DNA of 64,000 bases. It comes from an uncultured Gammaproteobacteria bacterium. Lineage in GTDB: Bacteria > Patescibacteriota > Microgenomatia > Levybacterales > JACOYD01. This document shows, piece after piece, positions 2,648 to 40,936 of the stretch (positions are counted from its first letter, which is position 1; each line of letters begins with the position of its first letter). The translations under genes and the position numbers were made by a program. The notes beneath the pieces are model-generated. The model made no database searches and was not told the origin of the DNA. It saw only the letters and a list, made by a program, of their open reading frames with translations. The stretch spans positions 5,176 through 69,175 of the forward strand of contig CAYUJR010000002.1 of NCBI GenBank assembly GCA_964445095.1, given 5' to 3'.

Positions 2648-2649
2648 TT

Positions 2650-3240
2650 TTAGGGTGAGTAAAATAAAGACAATGCTCAATCCTACAGATTATTTAATCT
2701 ATTGAAGATGGATCAAATTTGGGAAAGTCTTCATTTAAATATGCAGAACGAGGATCCCTTTTGGAGAAACCAAAAGTCCTCCCTCTCTCTGGTTGTCGCC
2801 TGACCACAATCTCAACCTCTTCTCCTGCTCTTCTTGCTGCTTCTTCCAATTCTGCCACACCTGCTCTTAATGTTCTTTCTCCTGCTCCAGGGGTACGCTC
2901 ATAGAGAGTAGTAGGTTCTCCTATAAATTTAATTGAGCCATCTTCTCCCCTTTTTGTTCCTATGGGTCTTAATCCCACGACTGCGTTTAAGGCAATATTA
3001 TCGCCTGTGTGTCGCCGCCTGGTTTAGCTTCTTTTCTCATGTAGAAGAATTTAGCAAATAGTAATTCAAAAGTCAAGTGTATGTCTTGTGGCGTTGAGCT
3101 TCAAATGGCCTGTGATGAGTTCTATCGAACCATGCCATGGCTCTGAGTTTATCGAAGGGTTATAGCATTGAGCCTGCCGAAATGCTTGCCCTGAGTCCAT
3201 CGAATGGGGTAAAATATGGGAAGAAAATATGAGTTTATTT
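2650..3240. other. Anomalous GC-/CT-rich non-genic-looking segment between ftsI and lexA (degraded gene or structured RNA; not identifiable)
   Basis: Composition differs sharply from the flanking AT-rich DNA. Overlapping ORFs on both strands (2694-2978 minus; 2719-2904 plus). No SD or promoter context. The minus-strand ORF starts at GTG and is rich in AGA/GGA/GAA codons. Confidence 0.3.
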
Positions 3241-3246
3241 TTCCTC

Positions 3247-3276
3247 TTGACAGACTGACTATTTAGTCAGTATACT
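3247..3276 (+). promoter_or_regulatory. lexA promoter with embedded perfect palindromic operator (putative SOS box)
   Basis: TTGACA at 3247-3252, then 18 bp, then TATACT at 3271-3276. The ATG follows 9 nt later, so the mRNA is near-leaderless. The perfect inverted repeat ACTGACTA-TT-TAGTCAGT (3254-3271) fills the spacer. Confidence 0.6.
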
Positions 3277-3285
3277 GGATGGGTT

Positions 3286-3900
3286 ATGGATAAAATAACT
3301 GCCCGTCAGGCAGAAGTTTTGAAACTGATTTATAAATCGATTTCCGATTCCGGTTACCCCCCGACTTTGGCCGAACTGCGTGAGTCTTTGGATGTTTCTT
3401 CCAATCAGGCAGTTTTGGATATTCTAAAAATTTTAGAAGATAAAGGTTATATACAGAAAGAGGAAGGAACAGCAAGAACCATTAGAATTTTAGATAAAGG
3501 CATTAAAGAATTGGGTTTAAAGCAAGTTGCTCCTGTTGCAGGTATCAGCGCAGCCGGCCCATATATGCAAGCCTATGAAATTAATGAATGGAAAGTTATA
3601 GACGATGTACAAGTAACCCCAAAAGACCGTCTGGTAAGAATTTCCGGGGATTCCATGATTGAGGCAGGCATTAATGATGGAGACATTGTCATAGTTCGTG
3701 AATCTAAAGAATTTAAAAACAGGGATATAGTTTTAGCCAGAAATAATGATGAAACAACAGTTAAAAGGTTTGTGCATGATGACGGTAAGGTTTACTTAAA
3801 ACCGGAAAACCCAAAATATAGAAATATTCCCATATATCCGGAGACTAGATTATTGGGTAAAGTTGTAGGTATACTTGGGAAAAGTAAAATTAATGACTAA
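3286..3900 (+). CDS. lexA: LexA-type transcriptional repressor (S24 peptidase)
   Basis: Canonical LexA winged-HTH N-domain (TARQAEVLKLI...YPPTLAEL...GYI). Ala-Gly cleavage site (AAGP), GDSM serine and VKRF lysine are present. The palindromic operator lies in its own promoter. Confidence 0.9.
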   Translation: MDKITARQAEVLKLIYKSISDSGYPPTLAELRESLDVSSNQAVLDILKILEDKGYIQKEEGTARTIRILDKGIKELGLKQVAPVAGISAAGPYMQAYEINEWKVIDDVQVTPKDRLVRISGDSMIEAGINDGDIVIVRESKEFKNRDIVLARNNDETTVKRFVHDDGKVYLKPENPKYRNIPIYPETRLLGKVVGILGKSKIND

Positions 3901-4717
3901 TGTTATGATACCGCAAATTATAAACAGAACAGGATTAGACCATCAGCCTAACAGAAATAATGCTAAAAAGCTTTTATATCCGGAAGATTTTATAAATAAA
4001 ATTATGTGTGGGGATGCTATCGAAATAATGAAACAAATCCCTAATCAAAAAGTAGACCTAGTTGTTACTTCGCCTCCTTATAATCTCAAAAATTCTACCG
4101 GTAACGGAATGAAAGACGGACGAGGTGGTAAATGGGCAAATGCTGCACTACAAAATGGATACACACATCACGACGATTGTATGCCCCATGATAAATATGT
4201 TAAATGGCAAAAAGAATGTTTGAATGAAATGATGAGAATAATTCCAGAAGATGGCGCAATTTTTTATAATCATAAATGGCGTGTTCAGGATGGCTTATTA
4301 CAAGATCGCCAAGATATCGTGGCTGGATTTCCTGTCAGGCAAATTATTATTTGGAAGAGAAAAGGAGGTCTTAATTTCAATTCCGGTTACTTCTTGCCTA
4401 CTTATGAAGTTATTTACCTTATAGCTAAACCGAAGTTTAAATTAGCGCCAAAAGCAAATGCTTATGGTGATGTTTGGGAATTTACCCAAGAAATGAAAAA
4501 TGAGCATCCCGCTGCTTTCCCTGTCAAATTAATTGATCGTATCATTTCTTCAACCAATGCAAAAATAATTCTTGATCCTTTTATGGGTTCAGGTACAACA
4601 GCTATTTCTGCGATTAATTTTAATAGAAAATATATAGGTATTGATATTTCACCGGAGTATTGTAAGATGGCACAGGAGCGAATTGAGCGCCACAATGCGC
4701 AAATAAAACTCCTGTAA
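3893..4717 (+). CDS. Beta-class N4-cytosine/N6-adenine DNA methyltransferase of a type II R-M system
   Basis: Motif IV TSPPY (VVTSPPYNL) precedes motif I DPFMGSGTT, which is beta-group order. SPPY is typical of N4C MTases. The ORF is open from TTG 3875; the start is placed at ATG 3893 and overlaps the lexA stop. Confidence 0.8.
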   Translation: MTNVMIPQIINRTGLDHQPNRNNAKKLLYPEDFINKIMCGDAIEIMKQIPNQKVDLVVTSPPYNLKNSTGNGMKDGRGGKWANAALQNGYTHHDDCMPHDKYVKWQKECLNEMMRIIPEDGAIFYNHKWRVQDGLLQDRQDIVAGFPVRQIIIWKRKGGLNFNSGYFLPTYEVIYLIAKPKFKLAPKANAYGDVWEFTQEMKNEHPAAFPVKLIDRIISSTNAKIILDPFMGSGTTAISAINFNRKYIGIDISPEYCKMAQERIERHNAQIKLL

Positions 4718-4721
4718 AACT

Positions 4722-5519
4722 ATGGCAAGTAAACCGATTATTTATACAAAACAAACGCTAATTGATAAACTTAAAGAAATTGTGGTTATGGGTTGGATTC
4801 CAAACGCCCGGCGAGGTAATTCTGGGGGTATAGGAAATACATTAGAAGATTTACTTGGTATTAAAGAAAATAATTTACCAATTCCAAACGCCGCTGAATG
4901 GGAGTTAAAAACTCAACGTATTAATTCTTCTTCATTAACGACCCTTTTTCATTCAGAGCCCTCACCTCGAGCTATTCGTTTTGTTCCACAAGTTTTGTTG
5001 CCAAAATATGGATGGGCTCATCAGGAAGATGGCAAGAAATATGCCAAAGGTGAGATGAGTTTTCGGCAAACAATTCATGGTCAATCAAGAAGTGATCGTG
5101 GTTTTATGGTTATTATTGATCGTTCAGAGAAAAAGATTTTAATTTCCTTTGATTCAAAAAGTGTGGCCATAAAGCATAAAGACTGGCTCGAATCAGTGAA
5201 AAAACGTGTTGGATTAAAAGAACTTGACCCCCAACCATATTGGGGGTTTGATGATTTAGAACATAAAGCCGGAACAAAATTACTTAATACCTTCTATGTT
5301 CAAGCTGAAGTGAAAGTTGAACGTAAAAAAGAATATTATAAATATACAAAAATTATGATGCTCCAAAAATTCAGTTTTGAAGGATTTTTGAAAGCATTGG
5401 AAGAAGGAAAAATTCTTGTAGATTTTGATGCTCGTACAGGACATAATCATGGAACAAAGTTTAGGATGAGACAGGATTGTTTACCAATACTTTATGAAAA
5501 AGTAACGGTGATTATTTAA
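4722..5519 (+). CDS. Type II restriction endonuclease partner of the MTase (size and context fit MvaI/BcnI-like enzymes)
   Basis: Starts 5 nt after the MTase stop. At 265 aa it matches the size of monomeric MvaI/BcnI-family REases that pair with N4C MTases. No motif strictly recognised; the call rests on context. Confidence 0.5.
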   Translation: MASKPIIYTKQTLIDKLKEIVVMGWIPNARRGNSGGIGNTLEDLLGIKENNLPIPNAAEWELKTQRINSSSLTTLFHSEPSPRAIRFVPQVLLPKYGWAHQEDGKKYAKGEMSFRQTIHGQSRSDRGFMVIIDRSEKKILISFDSKSVAIKHKDWLESVKKRVGLKELDPQPYWGFDDLEHKAGTKLLNTFYVQAEVKVERKKEYYKYTKIMMLQKFSFEGFLKALEEGKILVDFDARTGHNHGTKFRMRQDCLPILYEKVTVII

Positions 5520-5567
5520 ACATTAATCAGAAAAAGAAATTTTGGAGAATTTAAGAAAGGTAAAGAT

Positions 5568-6230
5568 ATGAATTCAACAACAGAAAAACTCATAGAACGA
5601 GTTAGCCAACTTTTGTCTAAGGGGCAATCTGTCGCTGGGACACGATACAATGATAGTTCTGAACATGTTTTCGCTCCAGACGAAGTAAATAGTACCCCAT
5701 TTCATGCATGGAAGAATAACTCACAAAACTGCGTTTTAATGGTTTGTGGAGAAAACAGTCCTTATTATAAAAACTTTATTGAAGGAGTGAAAATAGCTCG
5801 CCCTAGCGATGTAGATCGTGGTATTGGCATACTCACAGCACTGAAAGAAGATTTGGAGTTAGGTTATTTAACCAAAGTTAGAGATTTGGTAAGCGCTGAA
5901 ATCTTTACAGATTTTATCGAAATGGCTCAGCACCTCTTGGATAATAACTATAAAGACCCTTCCGCTTCCCTGATAGGTGCTGTATTGGAAAATGGCTTGA
6001 GACAAATCGCACAGAAAAATACAGTTGAAGTCAAATCGGGCGATGACATAGGATCACTTAATACAAAGCTCGCAGACAAAGAAGTTTATAGTCGCTTGTT
6101 ACAGAAACAAATTCAGGCCTGGAAGGCAATAAGAGATAGTGCTGATCATGGTAAGTTTGAGGATTACAAAACAGAGGATGTTAAGGCTATGTTAGAAGGT
6201 GTGAAAAGATTTTTAACGGAGAATTTGTAG
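5568..6230 (+). CDS. HEPN-domain protein, Abi-like (DUF4145-like), RNase-type Rx4HG motif
   Basis: The C-terminal helical domain carries ...AWKAIRDSADHGKF..., i.e. R-x4-H-G. It sits immediately downstream of the R-M genes, as stand-alone HEPN/Abi genes often do. Confidence 0.55.
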   Translation: MNSTTEKLIERVSQLLSKGQSVAGTRYNDSSEHVFAPDEVNSTPFHAWKNNSQNCVLMVCGENSPYYKNFIEGVKIARPSDVDRGIGILTALKEDLELGYLTKVRDLVSAEIFTDFIEMAQHLLDNNYKDPSASLIGAVLENGLRQIAQKNTVEVKSGDDIGSLNTKLADKEVYSRLLQKQIQAWKAIRDSADHGKFEDYKTEDVKAMLEGVKRFLTENL

Positions 6231-6232
6231 AT

Positions 6233-6589
6233 ATGCAAAATCAGATACCAATAACAAATAAAATAAAAACCATCAAACTTGAGAAGATGCCAACTCTTAT
6301 TAAAGAGTTTATGGTTGATAGAACTCCTCGCAATAAAAACTTCGGCCAACTCTTAAAAATTTTCAATTCTTGCTACAAATCTTTTTCTCCTGATCCATCT
6401 AACGATTTGCGAATACTGAAGTACGTCGAGGATATGAAGAGTGGGGAATGGAATGATTTGATAATTATAACTTTTCAAAATGGACAGGCTATAGACGGTG
6501 TGCATAGAGGTATTGCATATCTAAAATGCGTAAAAGAAGGAAGTAAGGAGGATACTCTTCCGCAGATTTATTTAAGTAGAGTAAAATAA
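6233..6589 (+). CDS. Hypothetical 118-aa protein whose first 8 codons are duplicated at 6591
   Basis: The ORF starts 3 nt after the HEPN stop. The 24-nt segment holding its start (6231-6254) is repeated exactly at 6589-6612. Confidence 0.5.
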   Translation: MQNQIPITNKIKTIKLEKMPTLIKEFMVDRTPRNKNFGQLLKIFNSCYKSFSPDPSNDLRILKYVEDMKSGEWNDLIIITFQNGQAIDGVHRGIAYLKCVKEGSKEDTLPQIYLSRVK

Positions 6590-6590
6590 T

Positions 6591-6737
6591 ATGCAAAATC
6601 AGATACCAATAAATTGGCAGTTGAAAGCTGTAGAATTAGTAAGTAAATCGCACGAGGCAAGAAAGAAATCAAAAGAGCTTTTGGAAGAAGCGAAAAGAAA
6701 AGTTGAGGAAATGGTTGAAAAAGGAGGTGAGAATTAG
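6591..6737 (+). CDS. 48-aa coiled-coil small ORF (MQNQIPINWQ...EKGGEN) sharing its start with the preceding gene
   Basis: Not in the ORF track because it is under 60 aa. It has the same ribosome context and first 7 residues as 6233-6589. Its 3' end encodes the AAAGGAGGTGA SD of the next gene, and its stop overlaps that gene's GTG start. Confidence 0.4.
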   Translation: MQNQIPINWQLKAVELVSKSHEARKKSKELLEEAKRKVEEMVEKGGEN

Positions 6738-7108
6738 TGAAACTTGATGAATTTATAACGAATGTTTTAATGGATATTGACAATGGATTAGCAGTCGCAA
6801 AAGAAAAAGCTAATAGAAATTATTATGTGTCATCTACAGATAAAGGGGGAGTTAGTTTCGATATTGCCGTAACCACAACTTCTTCAAGTGGTTCAAAAGC
6901 CGAAGGAACAGCAAAAGTAGGCATAATCCAAGTTTTGGGTGCTGGTGTTAATGCCGGGTTAGAAAGTAAGGAAGAAAATAGTCATGTAAGCAGAATACGG
7001 TTTTTTGTTCATGTACCAAGTAGGACAAAAACTGAAATTGAAGAGGATTCTAGAGAAATAGCAGAGTTAAATAGAAGACAAAGAGAAGAATCTAGTTTTG
7101 GAACTTAG
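6737..7108 (+). CDS. Small cytoplasmic protein, trypco2-like (trypsin-co-occurring domain 2-like) pattern
   Basis: GTG start 7 nt after a strong SD. Pattern: an amphipathic helix, then VSFDIAVTTT...KAEGTAKVGIIQVLGAGVNAG...H.SRIRFFVHV, resembling trypco2 conflict-system domains. This is recalled from memory, not aligned. Confidence 0.35.
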   Translation: MKLDEFITNVLMDIDNGLAVAKEKANRNYYVSSTDKGGVSFDIAVTTTSSSGSKAEGTAKVGIIQVLGAGVNAGLESKEENSHVSRIRFFVHVPSRTKTEIEEDSREIAELNRRQREESSFGT

Positions 7109-7306
7109 CTGGATGACCTCCCTCTTTCATTTCTCCTTCGTCCTTTGGGACTATGGAAGGACACAGTAAAATTACGGAAGGGCAGGCACGCCGGTTTGCC
7201 CTGAGCGAGGCCAAAGGAAAGAAATTGCAATTGTGGAGGATAGTGTAGCACAGTAATTTTATGAAACAGATGAAAATTAAATTAGCAATTTTTGAAGGAA
7301 GTGAGT

Positions 7307-7325
7307 CGGTGACAAATTGTCACCG
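7307..7325. repeat. Perfect 19-nt palindrome CGGTGACAA-A-TTGTCACCG in the spacer after the defence-like operon
   Basis: Exact inverted repeat. No U-tract follows it, so it is more likely a protein-binding site than an intrinsic terminator. Confidence 0.6.
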
Positions 7326-7465
7326 TTTGAAAATGTTGGCTGTTTACGAGATAATTATTTACCAAGTAATATAATTAAAAAACTAAAATGAGCAATTATT
7401 ACAACATTTAAATTCCCGAGGTGTTTTTGGTTGCATTGCGGATATATTTCCATAAATAATACTAA

Positions 7466-7891
7466 ATGAATAAAGACAAAAGTTATACATGGAATGCCCC
7501 AGACAAAGAAGTTAGCCAGTTAAGCAGTAAAGAGATTGTAATAATATATATTCTTAAAAAGATTAGTCCCTATCTAACAACTCTAACAAGATTTTTCCCA
7601 TTCTCATTACTCTGGCAGGATCGAAGATTTCATTACAAACACAAAAAGATTGCTGACGCCGATGATCTTATTATTAAAATTGCCGGAGAAAAAGACTTTT
7701 GGTTTAAATTATTTTCTTACGATGAAGATGATCGTTTTTTAAACATTATCGGTAAATTTATACCTTTAAAAAAAGACTCTAGCAAAGATAAATTGTTCCA
7801 GTATTTTAGAAAGAAAATGGAGAATGAAGACTTTTATATAAATGACTTGGAGGATGGGAGAGTTAAAATTTCCTTAATGCAAAAGAAATAG
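7466..7891 (+). CDS. Hypothetical protein (AT-rich orphan)
   Basis: 141-aa ORF with no recognisable motif. Very AT-rich and isolated by a 357-bp spacer. Confidence 0.4.
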   Translation: MNKDKSYTWNAPDKEVSQLSSKEIVIIYILKKISPYLTTLTRFFPFSLLWQDRRFHYKHKKIADADDLIIKIAGEKDFWFKLFSYDEDDRFLNIIGKFIPLKKDSSKDKLFQYFRKKMENEDFYINDLEDGRVKISLMQKK

Positions 7892-8001
7892 ATATGAGAT
7901 TATAATCAAAACAAGCTGGTCCTTCGGTAGACTCAGGATAAAGGGATTTTGGAAATGTTTTAATTTTCGTTATACTTAAATAGTAGAGAGGAGGTGAGGA
8001 A

Positions 8002-8523
8002 ATGAATATTAAGAAATTGTTAATAGGTGGTGCGGCCGGGGCGATCATGTTTGCTGCGGTAGTCGCACCGGCTTTGGCAGCGGGTGGATTTGACCAGTTT
8101 GGCTATAACAGAACTGCCAGAAACTTTGTGGGTACCTGTTTAAGCTGGGGCATGGGTAAATATGGATGGACCCAGGCTCAAGCTCAAGCTTACTGCGGAG
8201 TTTACTCCAATGATAAACTGGTGATGAAATGGAATGCCGAGTGGGACCGGGGTAATGCCGAGGGTTGGGCAAACGGCCCGTATGATGCCTGGATTGATAA
8301 TGAGTGGAATGGCAGAAACAATGGGTCAGGGGAAATCTGGCATTATAAAATAGCCTGGGACAGGGGTTGCGCAGACTCCGGTACTCCTTCGGGAGCGGCT
8401 GTCAAAGGAGGGGCCTATTGTATTTGGGGGCCTTTTGCCATGCTGCAAAGCCAGGGGTCTGGTGCGGATAAAGTGCATTATTGGGATGTGCTGCTGGCGC
8501 CTGCCGGTTACGGAGCATATTAA
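8002..8523 (+). CDS. Secreted Trp/Gly-rich hypothetical protein (Sec signal peptide)
   Basis: Strong SD (GAGAGGAGGTGAGGAA) 6 nt before the ATG. Signal peptide with AxA site (APALAAGG). Higher GC than its neighbours. Three Cys. Confidence 0.6.
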   Translation: MNIKKLLIGGAAGAIMFAAVVAPALAAGGFDQFGYNRTARNFVGTCLSWGMGKYGWTQAQAQAYCGVYSNDKLVMKWNAEWDRGNAEGWANGPYDAWIDNEWNGRNNGSGEIWHYKIAWDRGCADSGTPSGAAVKGGAYCIWGPFAMLQSQGSGADKVHYWDVLLAPAGYGAY

Positions 8524-8572
8524 TATAAGGAGAAATGGAGTTTTGGGGCTTTCTGAGGTATAATAGAGCCTG

Positions 8573-9709
8573 ATGTGGCAGAGCCTCAAAAACATCTATC
8601 ACTTGGCCATGGCGGTGGTGGCTAATTTGTGGTTTGGTTTTCCCTCAAAAAAGCTGACGGTCATTGGCGTGACCGGCACTGACGGTAAGACGACTACTGT
8701 TAACCTCATTTACCATATCTTAAAAACCGCCGGAAAACAGGTTTCGATGATTTCTTCGGTGGGGGCGGTTATTAATAGCAAAAATTATGAGACAGGTTTT
8801 CATGTGACCACTCCCTCTTCCTGGAAACTGCAAAAGTTTATCAAGAAAGCAGAAGGTTATTTAGTTCTCGAAGTTACTTCGCACGCTCTTGACCAGTACC
8901 GTGTTTGGGGCATAGATTTTGCAATTGGGGTACTGACTAATGTTACCAATGAACATCTTGATTACCACAAAACCTGGGAACAATATGTGAAAGTCAAATC
9001 AAAGTTGTTAAAAAACGCCAAGATAGCAATTGTTAATAAAGATGACAACTCCTACGGAGTAATTTCCAATTTCCAATTTCCAATTTCCAATAAATTAATT
9101 ACTTATGGATTAAAAAACTTTTCTTTTAAGACAAAATTGATGGGGGAGTTTAATAAATATAATATTTTGGCGGCGGCGGCGGCGGCAAAGACTTTAGGAA
9201 TAAAAGATCAAGTGATAAAAAAAGCAATAGCCAGTTTCCAATTACCGATTGGCAGGATGGAAGTTGTTTATAACGGCGCGTTTATGGTTATTATTGACTT
9301 TGCTCATACTCCAAACGCCCTAGAGCAAGCTTTATCGACAGTGAAAAAAAATGTTAGTGGTCGGTTAATTCATATTTTTGGTAGTGCTGGAGAAAGAGAT
9401 TTTCAGAAACGGCCGGAAATGGGAAGAGTTTCTAGCAAATACGCAGACATTATTATTTTGACTGCGGAGGATCCACGTTCGGAATCGGTTGATAAGATTA
9501 TCGAAGAGATTGAATCAGGAATTAAAAAGTCAGGAGTTTTGAGGGTTCAAAACAGGCAGGAGGCGATTAATACTGCTATTAAAATGGCCAAAAAAGGAGA
9601 TGTGGTGTTACTTACCGGTAAAGGGCACGAACAGTCGATGAATTATGGTCGGGGGGAGGAGCCGTGGAGTGAACATGAAGCAGTTAAACAAGCACTTAAA
9701 AAAAGTTAA
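8573..9709 (+). CDS. murE: UDP-MurNAc-L-Ala-D-Glu:meso-DAP/L-Lys ligase MurE (short form)
   Basis: GVTGTDGKTTT P-loop and DFAHTPNALEQAL (MurE DNAAHTPDAL-like) motifs. TATAAT at 8559-8564 sits only 8 nt before ATG 8573; the true start could instead be M at 8609. Confidence 0.85.
   Translation: MWQSLKNIYHLAMAVVANLWFGFPSKKLTVIGVTGTDGKTTTVNLIYHILKTAGKQVSMISSVGAVINSKNYETGFHVTTPSSWKLQKFIKKAEGYLVLEVTSHALDQYRVWGIDFAIGVLTNVTNEHLDYHKTWEQYVKVKSKLLKNAKIAIVNKDDNSYGVISNFQFPISNKLITYGLKNFSFKTKLMGEFNKYNILAAAAAAKTLGIKDQVIKKAIASFQLPIGRMEVVYNGAFMVIIDFAHTPNALEQALSTVKKNVSGRLIHIFGSAGERDFQKRPEMGRVSSKYADIIILTAEDPRSESVDKIIEEIESGIKKSGVLRVQNRQEAINTAIKMAKKGDVVLLTGKGHEQSMNYGRGEEPWSEHEAVKQALKKS
9062..9089 (+). repeat. (ATTTCCA)x4 heptanucleotide array, in-frame in murE
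   Basis: Four perfect units. With flanking bases it forms a 30-nt insert encoding ISNFQFPISN. Confidence 0.9.
9169..9186 (+). repeat. (GGC)6 trinucleotide repeat in murE (poly-Ala)
   Basis: GGCGGCGGCGGCGGCGGC encoding AAAAAA. Confidence 0.9.
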
Positions 9710-39775: not shown

Positions 39776-39864
39776 AGTAAGTTTATATTTCCATAAAAAA
39801 TCCGAAAAGTCAATCGGTAAATTGAGGTTACCTGGCTATTTATGTTAAAATACTAAAAAAAGAT

Positions 39865-39936
39865 GGACTCGTAGCTCAGCGGTAGAGCGCTGCATTCACA
39901 TTGCAGATGCCAGAGGTTCAAATCCTCTCGAGTCCA
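39865..39936 (+). tRNA. tRNA-Val (anticodon CAC)
   Basis: Acceptor stem GGACTCG/CGAGTCC with discriminator A. D-arm GCTC-AGCGGTA-GAGC. Anticodon stem-loop CTGCA-TTCACAT-TGCAG. T-arm AGAGG-TTCAAAT-CCTCT. 72 nt; CCA not encoded. Confidence 0.85.
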
Positions 39937-39946
39937 CCCGCGCTTT

Positions 39947-40936
39947 ATGAAGATTGTTTTTCTCTGCCGCTTTTCTGCTTATAGAGTTGGTGGTGTGGAA
40001 ACGCATGTAAAAAAAGTTGCCGCCGGGTTAGAAAATAAGGGCCATACAGTTAATATTATCAGTAACATCAAATATCCGAAGATAAAATTTTTAGGGTTAC
40101 TGGTCATTTGGTGGCAGTTATTAAAAACATTTAAAGTTATTAAAACGGCTGATGTCGTTCATGTTCATGACGTTTTTATCTGGTATCTGCCGCTTCGTTT
40201 TCTATTCCTCAAAAAGCCTGTTTTTATTACTTTCCATGGCTATGAGACCAAATTTCCTCCTTCAAGATGGTCAATATTAATTAGAAAAATTAGCGAGAAA
40301 TTATCTTGGGGAAATATTTGCGTTGGTGATTATATTAAAAAATGGTATGGGACAAAGCCGACTTACACCACCTATGGTGGCGTAAGAATACTACCAATAA
40401 ATACCAATACTACAAATACTACCAATAAAAATAATAAACTCAAAATTTTATTTATTGGAAGATTAGAGAAGGATACGGGAGTTAATATTTATTTACAAGT
40501 CTTAAAGATTCTTAAGAAGAAAAGAATTAGGTTTGAGTTTGAAGCCTGTGGAGATGGACAGTTGCGGAGTGAGGTAGAAAAAATTGGCCAAGTCCATGGT
40601 TTTGTCAAAGATATATCTTTCTATTTAGCGAGGTCGGACCTGGTTTTTAGCTCGTCTTATCTTTCTATTTTAGAAGCAATGGTGAATAAAAAGCTGGTCT
40701 TTGCAGTTTTTAATAATCCGCTTAAAGAAGATTATCTCAAAATGACTTCTTTTGCTCAATGGATAATTATTGAAAATTCGTCGATTAAGTTGGTCAAAAA
40801 AATGCAATACTACTTAAGTCATAAAATTACCCGAGAAAAATTAACAAACAGGGCTTATCAGTGGGTCAAAAGTCAAACATGGGAGGAGGTCGTAAAAGTT
40901 TATGAAAGTTTCCATAGTGGTTACGGTCTTAAATGA
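39947..40936 (+). CDS. GT-B glycosyltransferase, family 4/group 1
   Basis: GT4-type N-terminus (RVGGVETHV) and a C-terminal EX7E-like region. Contains an Asn/Thr-rich low-complexity insert from short tandem repeats at 40387-40435. Confidence 0.7.
   Translation: MKIVFLCRFSAYRVGGVETHVKKVAAGLENKGHTVNIISNIKYPKIKFLGLLVIWWQLLKTFKVIKTADVVHVHDVFIWYLPLRFLFLKKPVFITFHGYETKFPPSRWSILIRKISEKLSWGNICVGDYIKKWYGTKPTYTTYGGVRILPINTNTTNTTNKNNKLKILFIGRLEKDTGVNIYLQVLKILKKKRIRFEFEACGDGQLRSEVEKIGQVHGFVKDISFYLARSDLVFSSSYLSILEAMVNKKLVFAVFNNPLKEDYLKMTSFAQWIIIENSSIKLVKKMQYYLSHKITREKLTNRAYQWVKSQTWEEVVKVYESFHSGYGLK

Follow-up and report, generated by a model that had tools for sequence, protein, structure and literature searches.

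The described systems that come closest to the segment analyzed here include the orphan small-protein genes found in islands of Patescibacteria (CPR), to which it likewise compares in being short, hydrophilic, domain-less and patchily distributed, in a hotspot beside restriction-modification (R-M) and accessory genes. It differs from these, however, in that its near-consensus promoter is conserved and has a leaderless geometry, that its alleles are mosaic with a dN/dS of about 1 and that this copy is frameshifted. With diversifying mosaic accessory genes, such as those of immunity, anti-defence and surface variation, it shares conserved ends, hypervariable internal blocks and again a dN/dS of about 1, but no toxin, defence or secretion gene is conserved next to it as a partner, and neither its sequence nor its fold connects it to any of these families. 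Leaderless bacterial genes offer another parallel, as the ATG of the cassette is placed 7 nt after the -10 box with no Shine-Dalgarno sequence, although leaderless genes represent a mode of expression rather than a gene family, and the start of the cassette gene is predicted from geometry only. Finally, yneA, sosA, chiZ and divS are divergent from lexA and encode inhibitors of cell division in the SOS response, and the likeness here is a small open reading frame (ORF) divergent from lexA; the cassette differs in having no LexA-box-like palindrome and no transmembrane or LysM segment, and in that its homologs are unlinked to lexA. With moderate confidence, we favor the reading that the segment, at 2650-3240 of the window (by which we mean the whole 64-kb stretch of DNA that was analyzed), represents a self-contained, mobile orphan small-protein cassette on the minus strand, accessory in nature and frameshifted in this copy.

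The window starts with rsmH and ftsL, followed by a PBP/FtsI-type gene (959-2647) with Transpeptidase and PBP_dimer domains. The Mur ligase gene, located at 8573-9709 in the window, comes next after ftsI in 35 related Microgenomates/Levybacteria-type loci, where the gap between the two is either short (100 bp in locus L002) or occupied by csaA-like and YdjM-like genes. Based on this arrangement, 2648-8572 of the window is inserted, variable DNA of about 5.9 kb, compared with the 100-bp spacer of relatives such as L002. As csaA-like (tRNA-binding) and YdjM-like genes fill the same gap elsewhere, the gap represents a variable hotspot in the division and cell-wall cluster. The insert contains lexA (3286-3900, with Peptidase_S24 and LexA_DNA_bind domains) and, 3' of it, an N4/N6 DNA methylase and an MvaI/BcnI-type endonuclease that constitute a type II R-M pair, a weak HEPN-like ORF and three small ORFs (6737-8523) without a Pfam or other family match. 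The CT-rich segment 2650-3240 occupies the left edge of the insert.

A preliminary description of the segment, prepared from the letters alone, had pointed out a CT-rich run at 2790-2890, ORFs on both strands, no ribosome-binding site, and ftsI and lexA as flanks. All of this was recovered: C and T make up 75 of the 101 positions of the run, a GTG-started ORF of 94 aa on the minus strand (2694-2978) overlaps a TTG-started ORF of 61 aa on the plus strand (2719-2904), neither is preceded by a Shine-Dalgarno sequence, and the flanking genes are indeed the PBP/FtsI-type transpeptidase and LexA. On the other hand, the segment is not GC-rich as had been stated, its GC fraction of 0.44-0.46 being lower than the value of about 0.50 at the 3' end of ftsI and only moderately higher than the window mean of about 0.39. 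Nor are its AGA, GGA and GAA codons unlike those of the neighbors, as core and island genes favor the same Arg, Gly and Glu codons (AGA 36-45%, GGA 30-35%, GAA 61-72%); the sole outlier is GCA for Ala, with 8 of 9 compared with 15-29% in neighboring genes.

The 100 nt from position 2777 are 77% pyrimidine, the top purine/pyrimidine strand skew of the whole window. The pyrimidine-rich run of the plus strand (2769-2892) is the complement of the codons for ...GAGERTLRAGVAELEEAARRAGEEVEIVVRRQPERGR..., and both the CT-richness and the ORFs on two strands derive from a purine-rich coding strand built of GAA, AGA, GGA and GCA codons. The composition anomaly is thereby explained, as the run lies antisense to a coding sequence rich in purines, of which the overlapping 61-aa ORF is the shadow, a by-product with a codon log-likelihood ratio of 0.078 compared with 0.243 for the sense frame. 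The antisense frame matching this ORF is moreover interrupted by 1-3 stops in each of the three copies of the cassette described below. When the region was shuffled with dinucleotides preserved, open frames of at least 94 codons arose in 17-21% of the shuffles and those of at least 109 codons in 6-8%. Thus, ORF length is not significant by itself and the ORFs are, taken singly, no evidence of a gene; it is comparative evidence on which the reality of the feature rests.

The whole open frame (2697-3023, minus strand) served as query for an exhaustive HMMER search of 1.84e9 representatives. A single true relative was recovered, P0005 (117 aa, E 9e-22), which is 64% identical over 81 aa by BLASTP, all other matches being to long proteins with repetitive, E/R-rich sequence. 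A profile of these two sequences retrieved P0011 (113 aa), and the resulting three-sequence profile identified no member beyond the window copy, P0005 and P0011 among 5.8e9 proteins. The family hence comprises three members, from three environmental genomes. P0005 and P0011 are intact, ATG-started ORFs, which is to say a clean protein hit with an intact gene on one strand, the outcome that the preliminary description had set against its own proposals.

Further searches gave negative or marginal results. A word-indexed search of 5.8 billion proteins with the 94-aa ORF returned only the self match. Comparison of the region with the 35 related ftsI loci using blastn, nhmmer and tblastn yielded nothing, and DNA and protein profiles run over approximately 1 Mb of locus sequence found no further copies. 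BLAST against phage and plasmid collections gave matches of at most 33 nt only, a scan of viral contigs with the small protein gave nothing, and the window itself contains the cassette only once. Scans of viral contigs with DNA patterns detected one 24-nt match and four matches of 19-20 nt, without wider homology. The 24-nt identity (2753-2776, minus strand; IMG/VR contig L122) encodes GLRPIGTK in a phage protein of 791 aa with many ELGGG repeats. This octapeptide is the most conserved one of the small protein, but flanking homology is lacking, and the match may represent a coincidence or a short shared motif.

The three copies reside in three unrelated contexts, with no neighboring gene conserved across them. 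P0005 is present on five near-identical contigs (L116-L120), where it directly follows tRNA-Val(CAC) and precedes a Polysacc_synt-family (flippase-type) gene, in a neighborhood (ftsW, L21, L27, parB, signal peptidase and tRNA-Val) that is syntenic with 36.3-39.9 kb of the window. In L116 (2420-2500), the -35 box of the cassette starts 7 nt past the 3' end of the tRNA gene. The tRNA-Val(CAC) of the window (39864-39939), 90% identical, has no cassette and is directly followed by a 329-aa ORF (39947-40936). Thus, the content of the tRNA-Val 3' flank also differs between these genomes. The contig that encodes P0011 (L121) is 1.2 kb long, and the gene is flanked there by a T5orf172-domain gene on one side and an unannotated ORF on the other. 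The former (1-243 of L121, minus strand), with a T5orf172/MUG113 domain, is cut by the contig end and is divergent from the P0011 cassette; this domain is frequent in phage and mobile DNA. The DNA of the cassette is 78-83% identical. Against L116 the value is 83%, whereas the host proteins of L116 are only 45-63% identical to those of the window (ParB 63%). Judging from these comparisons, the cassette has most likely moved between distantly related Microgenomates-type genomes.

Following repair of the frameshift, the small-protein gene spans 2694-3040 on the minus strand, with about 115 codons from the ATG (3040-3038) to the TAA stop (2696-2694), homologous to P0005 and P0011. A promoter scan detected a sigma-70-type promoter immediately upstream (3048-3076, minus strand), with a -35 box TTGACT (3076-3071), a 17-nt spacer and an extended -10 box TGcTAAATT (3056-3048). 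The block from the -35 box to the ATG is near-invariant across the three homologs (1 mismatch in 45 nt against L116), and in all three copies the ATG starts 7 nt past the -10 box. This spacing suggests a leaderless start at ATG 3040. At the opposite boundary, the conserved 3' end TCAATAGATTAAATAATCTGT (2678-2696, minus strand) encompasses the final SID codons, the stop codon and, in addition, a weak hairpin rich in A/U, and homology to both relatives ceases about 8-10 nt past the stop codon (alignments A2, A4 and A7).

The upstream boundary varies between the copies. In L116 the homology sets in at the -35 box, and in L121 some 160 nt further upstream, at about 3235 of the window. The intervening conserved non-coding region (3077-3235, minus strand) displays approximately 75% identity with L121 (alignment A5) and is absent in L116; by blastn, the match between L121 and the window extends up to 3150. 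No consistent open frame is common to the window and L121 copies of this region, and its fold z-scores are close to 0 (+0.09 and -0.14). An origin as a tRNA remnant was tested and rejected. Four direct repeats of TGAG-N5/6-CGAA, also written TGAG(T)YYNNNCGAA, are found on the plus strand at 3116-3129, 3144-3156, 3169-3181 and 3192-3204, upstream of the promoter of the small gene and with a spacing of 23-28 nt. A search with TGAG-N5/6-CGAA, a pattern defined post hoc from these repeats, returned 3 exact copies here and 1 elsewhere compared with 0.33 expected, and L121 retains about one exact copy. The repeats may be candidate protein-binding or regulatory sites.

In the three-way DNA alignment (A4), the window copy exhibits a 1-nt deletion (3012-3013, minus strand) that shifts the frame after codon 9-10. 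The window reads GGCGGCG-ACACACAG where both homologs have GGCGGCGAACACACAG, with one A missing between 3013 and 3012; the assembled letters of this region, within 3000-3025, are GGCGGCGACACACAG. Adding one A yields MRKEAKPGGEHTGDN..., aligned with MRIEDKAGGEHTDH... and MKRESEPGGEHTDH... of the homologs, and the repaired frame MRKEAKPGGEHTGDNIALNAVVGLRPIGTK... is collinear with both relatives. As assembled, the ATG frame is cut to 17 codons (MRKEAKPGGDTQAIILP; 2987-3040, minus strand), with a stop (2989-2987) that precedes GTG 2978 by 8 nt. From the sequence, the window copy is probably a young pseudogene, inactivated by the deletion, although the missing A could be an assembly error. The deposited 94-aa protein (P0001; 2694-2978, minus strand) covers the downstream five-sixths of the gene and calls for a correction of the annotation, as it is the out-of-frame tail of a ~115-codon gene from which one base is missing. 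The codon matching its GTG start is GTA in L116, which is no start codon. At best, the maximal product of the window copy would be an N-terminally truncated 94-aa protein from GTG 2978.

Comparison of the three copies reveals a frame that is kept open with indels in threes. In-frame stops number 0, compared with 6-11 in the other two sense frames of all three copies (7-8 in the window), and the net length differences among copies are 6 nt, in multiples of three, the exception being the 1-nt deletion of the window. When the same codons were randomly substituted in simulations, the frame remained stop-free in 0.8-7% of trials (P 0.008-0.07 per pair). Replacements are more conservative than random in two of the three pairs (P 0.004-0.03), with no such excess in the window-L116 pair (P ~0.2), and in the most conserved block, AVVGLRPIGTK, all differences are synonymous. 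The codon log-likelihood ratio of 0.243 bits per codon is near the gene mean of 0.26, and G at first (42%) and A at third (49%) positions are gene-like.

On the other hand, dN/dS is not well below 1. The NG86 estimates are 0.88, 0.92 and 1.03, with bootstrap intervals that span 0.5-1.9, and differences are evenly spread over the codon positions (30/32/29, 17/24/21 and 33/33/32), compared with a dN/dS of 0.05 and a distribution of 21/6/77 for lexA of the window and of metagenome contig L036, used as control. Thus, the bulk of the amino-acid sequence falls outside ordinary purifying selection, with the reservation that three homologs render every one of these evolutionary tests weak. The substitutions are furthermore clustered (runs test P 0.013, 0.03 and <0.0002), and the phylogenies of individual blocks conflict: codons 10-45 group L116 with L121, codons 50-70 the window with L116, and codons 85-115 the window with L121. 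Clustering and incongruence together indicate mosaic alleles. A target of a diversity-generating retroelement was considered and rejected, as A accounts for 58-61% of the differences, about the expectation from composition and hence no adenine bias, the window holds no second copy of the cassette, and the Pfam-matched flanking genes (PBP, LexA, methylase, MvaI/BcnI endonuclease, HEPN-like and Mur ligase) are not reverse transcriptases, with the three small island ORFs at 6737-8523 lacking a Pfam match. From the three sequences at hand, we conclude that the segment holds a protein-coding gene in which the frame and a few motifs appear to be selected, with most of the sequence free or diversifying.

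The protein itself does not resemble described families. Searches of the small protein against Pfam, PHROGs, NCBIfam, PADLOC and PDB sequences gave nothing credible, and the four ORFs of the segment and the extended frame produced sub-threshold noise only in Pfam, NCBIfam, PHROGs and PADLOC (DUF7171 at 19 bits compared with a threshold of 27, ParB at 15 compared with 144). The proposal of an integrase or regulator remnant, put forward in the preliminary description, finds no backing in these searches; the wider suggestion of a decayed, horizontally acquired gene marking the left edge of an island holds in part, namely in the 1-nt deletion and in the position at the edge of the insert between ftsI and the Mur ligase gene, and fails as to the integrase or regulator identity. 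As read from the sequence, the small protein is hydrophilic and has no hydrophobic segment. When modeled by AlphaFold2 from the three aligned sequences, residues 20-80 are predicted to form a beta-hairpin, a helix and a strand (pLDDT 74-88) between disordered ends, and a Foldseek search of the PDB with this model recovered no better match than E 0.03, with a TM score below 0.4. A similarity to the hnRNP RRM was rejected, as P0005 does not conserve the segment involved.

In the reading that we favor, the near-consensus sigma-70 promoter with its extended -10 box would drive transcription from or beside ATG 3040, giving what, by its spacing, would be a leaderless mRNA. This would be translated to a hydrophilic protein of about 115 aa, belonging to a very rare, lineage-restricted family and predicted to have a core of beta-hairpin, helix and strand with disordered tails. 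The cassette would have moved among distantly related Microgenomates-type genomes, its alleles forming mosaics of near-identical and hypervariable blocks with a frame that stays open despite an overall dN/dS of about 1, a pattern that we read as diversifying or relaxed selection on an accessory protein. Here, the 1-nt deletion after codon 9-10 leaves a 17-codon frame and at best a 94-aa product from GTG 2978.

Of the competing explanations, the one that survives best, albeit as an unlikely one, is an inert relic, i.e. a piece of what was once a larger mobile element, carried as a passenger into three genomes and subject to neutral decay in all of them, with an ORF that is inherited rather than selected. 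A dN/dS of about 1, the extreme rarity (3 members in 5.8e9 proteins), the frameshift of the window copy and the mobile-type genes that adjoin the copies (the R-M system and the T5orf172 gene) would all be compatible with such a fate. Neutral decay is however difficult to reconcile with a promoter and ATG that remain near-invariant next to blocks differing by more than 40%, or with the absence of stops from the frame of every copy when the pairs are separated by 62-98 substitutions. The conservative replacements in two of the three pairs and the clustered rather than uniform substitutions also argue against it.

Marginally less probable again is that the cassette encodes a functional non-coding or dual-function RNA, expressed from the conserved promoter, with the open frame as a side effect of purine content. 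The dN/dS of about 1 without third-position excess is what such an RNA could display, and so is the block-wise conservation of nucleotides, with a 65-nt block containing a single mismatch and a near-invariant promoter and 5' end. It would also account for a window copy that bears a frameshift without further decay, and for a cassette that is better conserved than the housekeeping genes of its hosts. Nevertheless, the stop-free frame, the length differences in multiples of three and an ATG that coincides, in each of the three copies, with the predicted start of transcription favor a protein. The structured non-coding RNA that had been offered as the other candidate in the first account of the segment is likewise unsupported by Rfam matching, fold stability or covariation. 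At E<=10, Rfam gave no match for the segment beyond eukaryotic snoRNA models (12-22 bits compared with thresholds of 38-80), tRNA-Val only for the whole window and tRNA only for the homologous loci. Membership failed for tmRNA, RNase P, SRP, 6S, group I and II introns, OLE, ROOL, GOLLD and other families; ARAGORN detected no tmRNA either. Relative to shuffles, the folding z-scores of the ORF part are -0.93 and -1.24, with no stable centroid. The RNAalifold covariation term is -0.08 kcal/mol, of low power with three sequences, and the hypervariable patches have no compensating partner; a general test for structured RNA by stability and compensatory changes was thus negative, at the same low power. 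Furthermore, a strand with 60-64% purine, locally up to 77%, makes extensive pairing impossible.

Regarding function, a role of the small-protein cassette in genetic conflict is a guess, and a doubtful one, drawn from the evolutionary pattern and the neighboring genes only. Bolder, and with a slim chance of being correct, is the idea of a new small mobile unit of CPR bacteria, in which a module of promoter and leaderless gene would insert at hotspots near tRNA genes and defence cassettes, and in which a hypervariable protein or a purine-rich transcript would act in conflict between host and phage or between symbiont and host. We found no evidence of a new mechanism.

The adjacent lexA raised a further alternative. 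Contig L036 matches the window at 3246-3901 only (83% nt identity, LexA 89% aa) with unrelated flanks, an M56/BlaR1-type peptidase gene being positioned upstream of its lexA. By this homology, lexA with its promoter (3246-3901) is a discrete cassette separate from that of the small gene, with the junction placed at 3245-3246, where the L036 homology begins. The lexA promoter, TTGACA-18-TATACT, contains a perfect 18-bp palindrome, ACTGACTA-TT-TAGTCAGT (3254-3271), which is 100% conserved in L036 and is probably the LexA operator, and as the ATG is located 9 nt after the -10 box TATACT, lexA is nearly leaderless too. A small ORF divergent from lexA, about 250 bp away and beside ftsI in the division cluster, could in principle encode an SOS-induced division inhibitor like those of yneA, sosA, chiZ and divS, yet this is highly improbable. 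The two homologs are not adjacent to lexA, being placed by tRNA-Val and the flippase gene or by the T5orf172 gene, and the small protein has no hydrophobic segment and no Pfam domain, LysM included. The palindrome occurs once only: even when up to 3 mismatches were tolerated, the window yielded no second copy of ACTGACTA-N2-TAGTCAGT. Since L036 shares 3246-3901 only and the palindrome is unique, the idea was rejected, and the boundary at 3246 means that the adjacency to lexA is a junction of two independent cassettes.

Least probable of all is that the gene is what remains of the N-terminus of a decayed NAD(P)-binding dehydrogenase from the imine-reductase/3-hydroxyisobutyrate-dehydrogenase family, for although phmmer against the PDB gave 9 matches (E 0.007-0.07), all to the N-terminal Rossmann region, with, for example, VVGLRPIG..GEPTTLYERTPGAGE aligned to VIGLGPMG..GHPTTVWNRTPGKAD, the three-sequence profile weakens the same matches to E 0.065-1.9, Pfam NAD_binding_2 (PF03446) is absent even at E<=10, the glycine-rich loop is GLRPIG in all three homologs where GxGxxG is required, the AlphaFold2 model is not a Rossmann fold, and all three proteins end at the same ...SID stop, which identifies them as full-length family members rather than truncations. 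Imine reductase or PF03446 membership was hence rejected.

For this lineage, the data portray the gap between ftsI and the Mur ligase gene as a hotspot built of independent, sharply bounded cassettes. If the reading as a mobile module of CPR bacteria were true, the sharp junction at 3246 with the similarly organized lexA cassette would hint at a shared mechanism of cassette assembly. As a family, the small proteins are few and oddly evolving, combining an open frame with a dN/dS of about 1 and mosaic blocks, and may thereby offer a case for how orphan small proteins originate and spread in reduced genomes.
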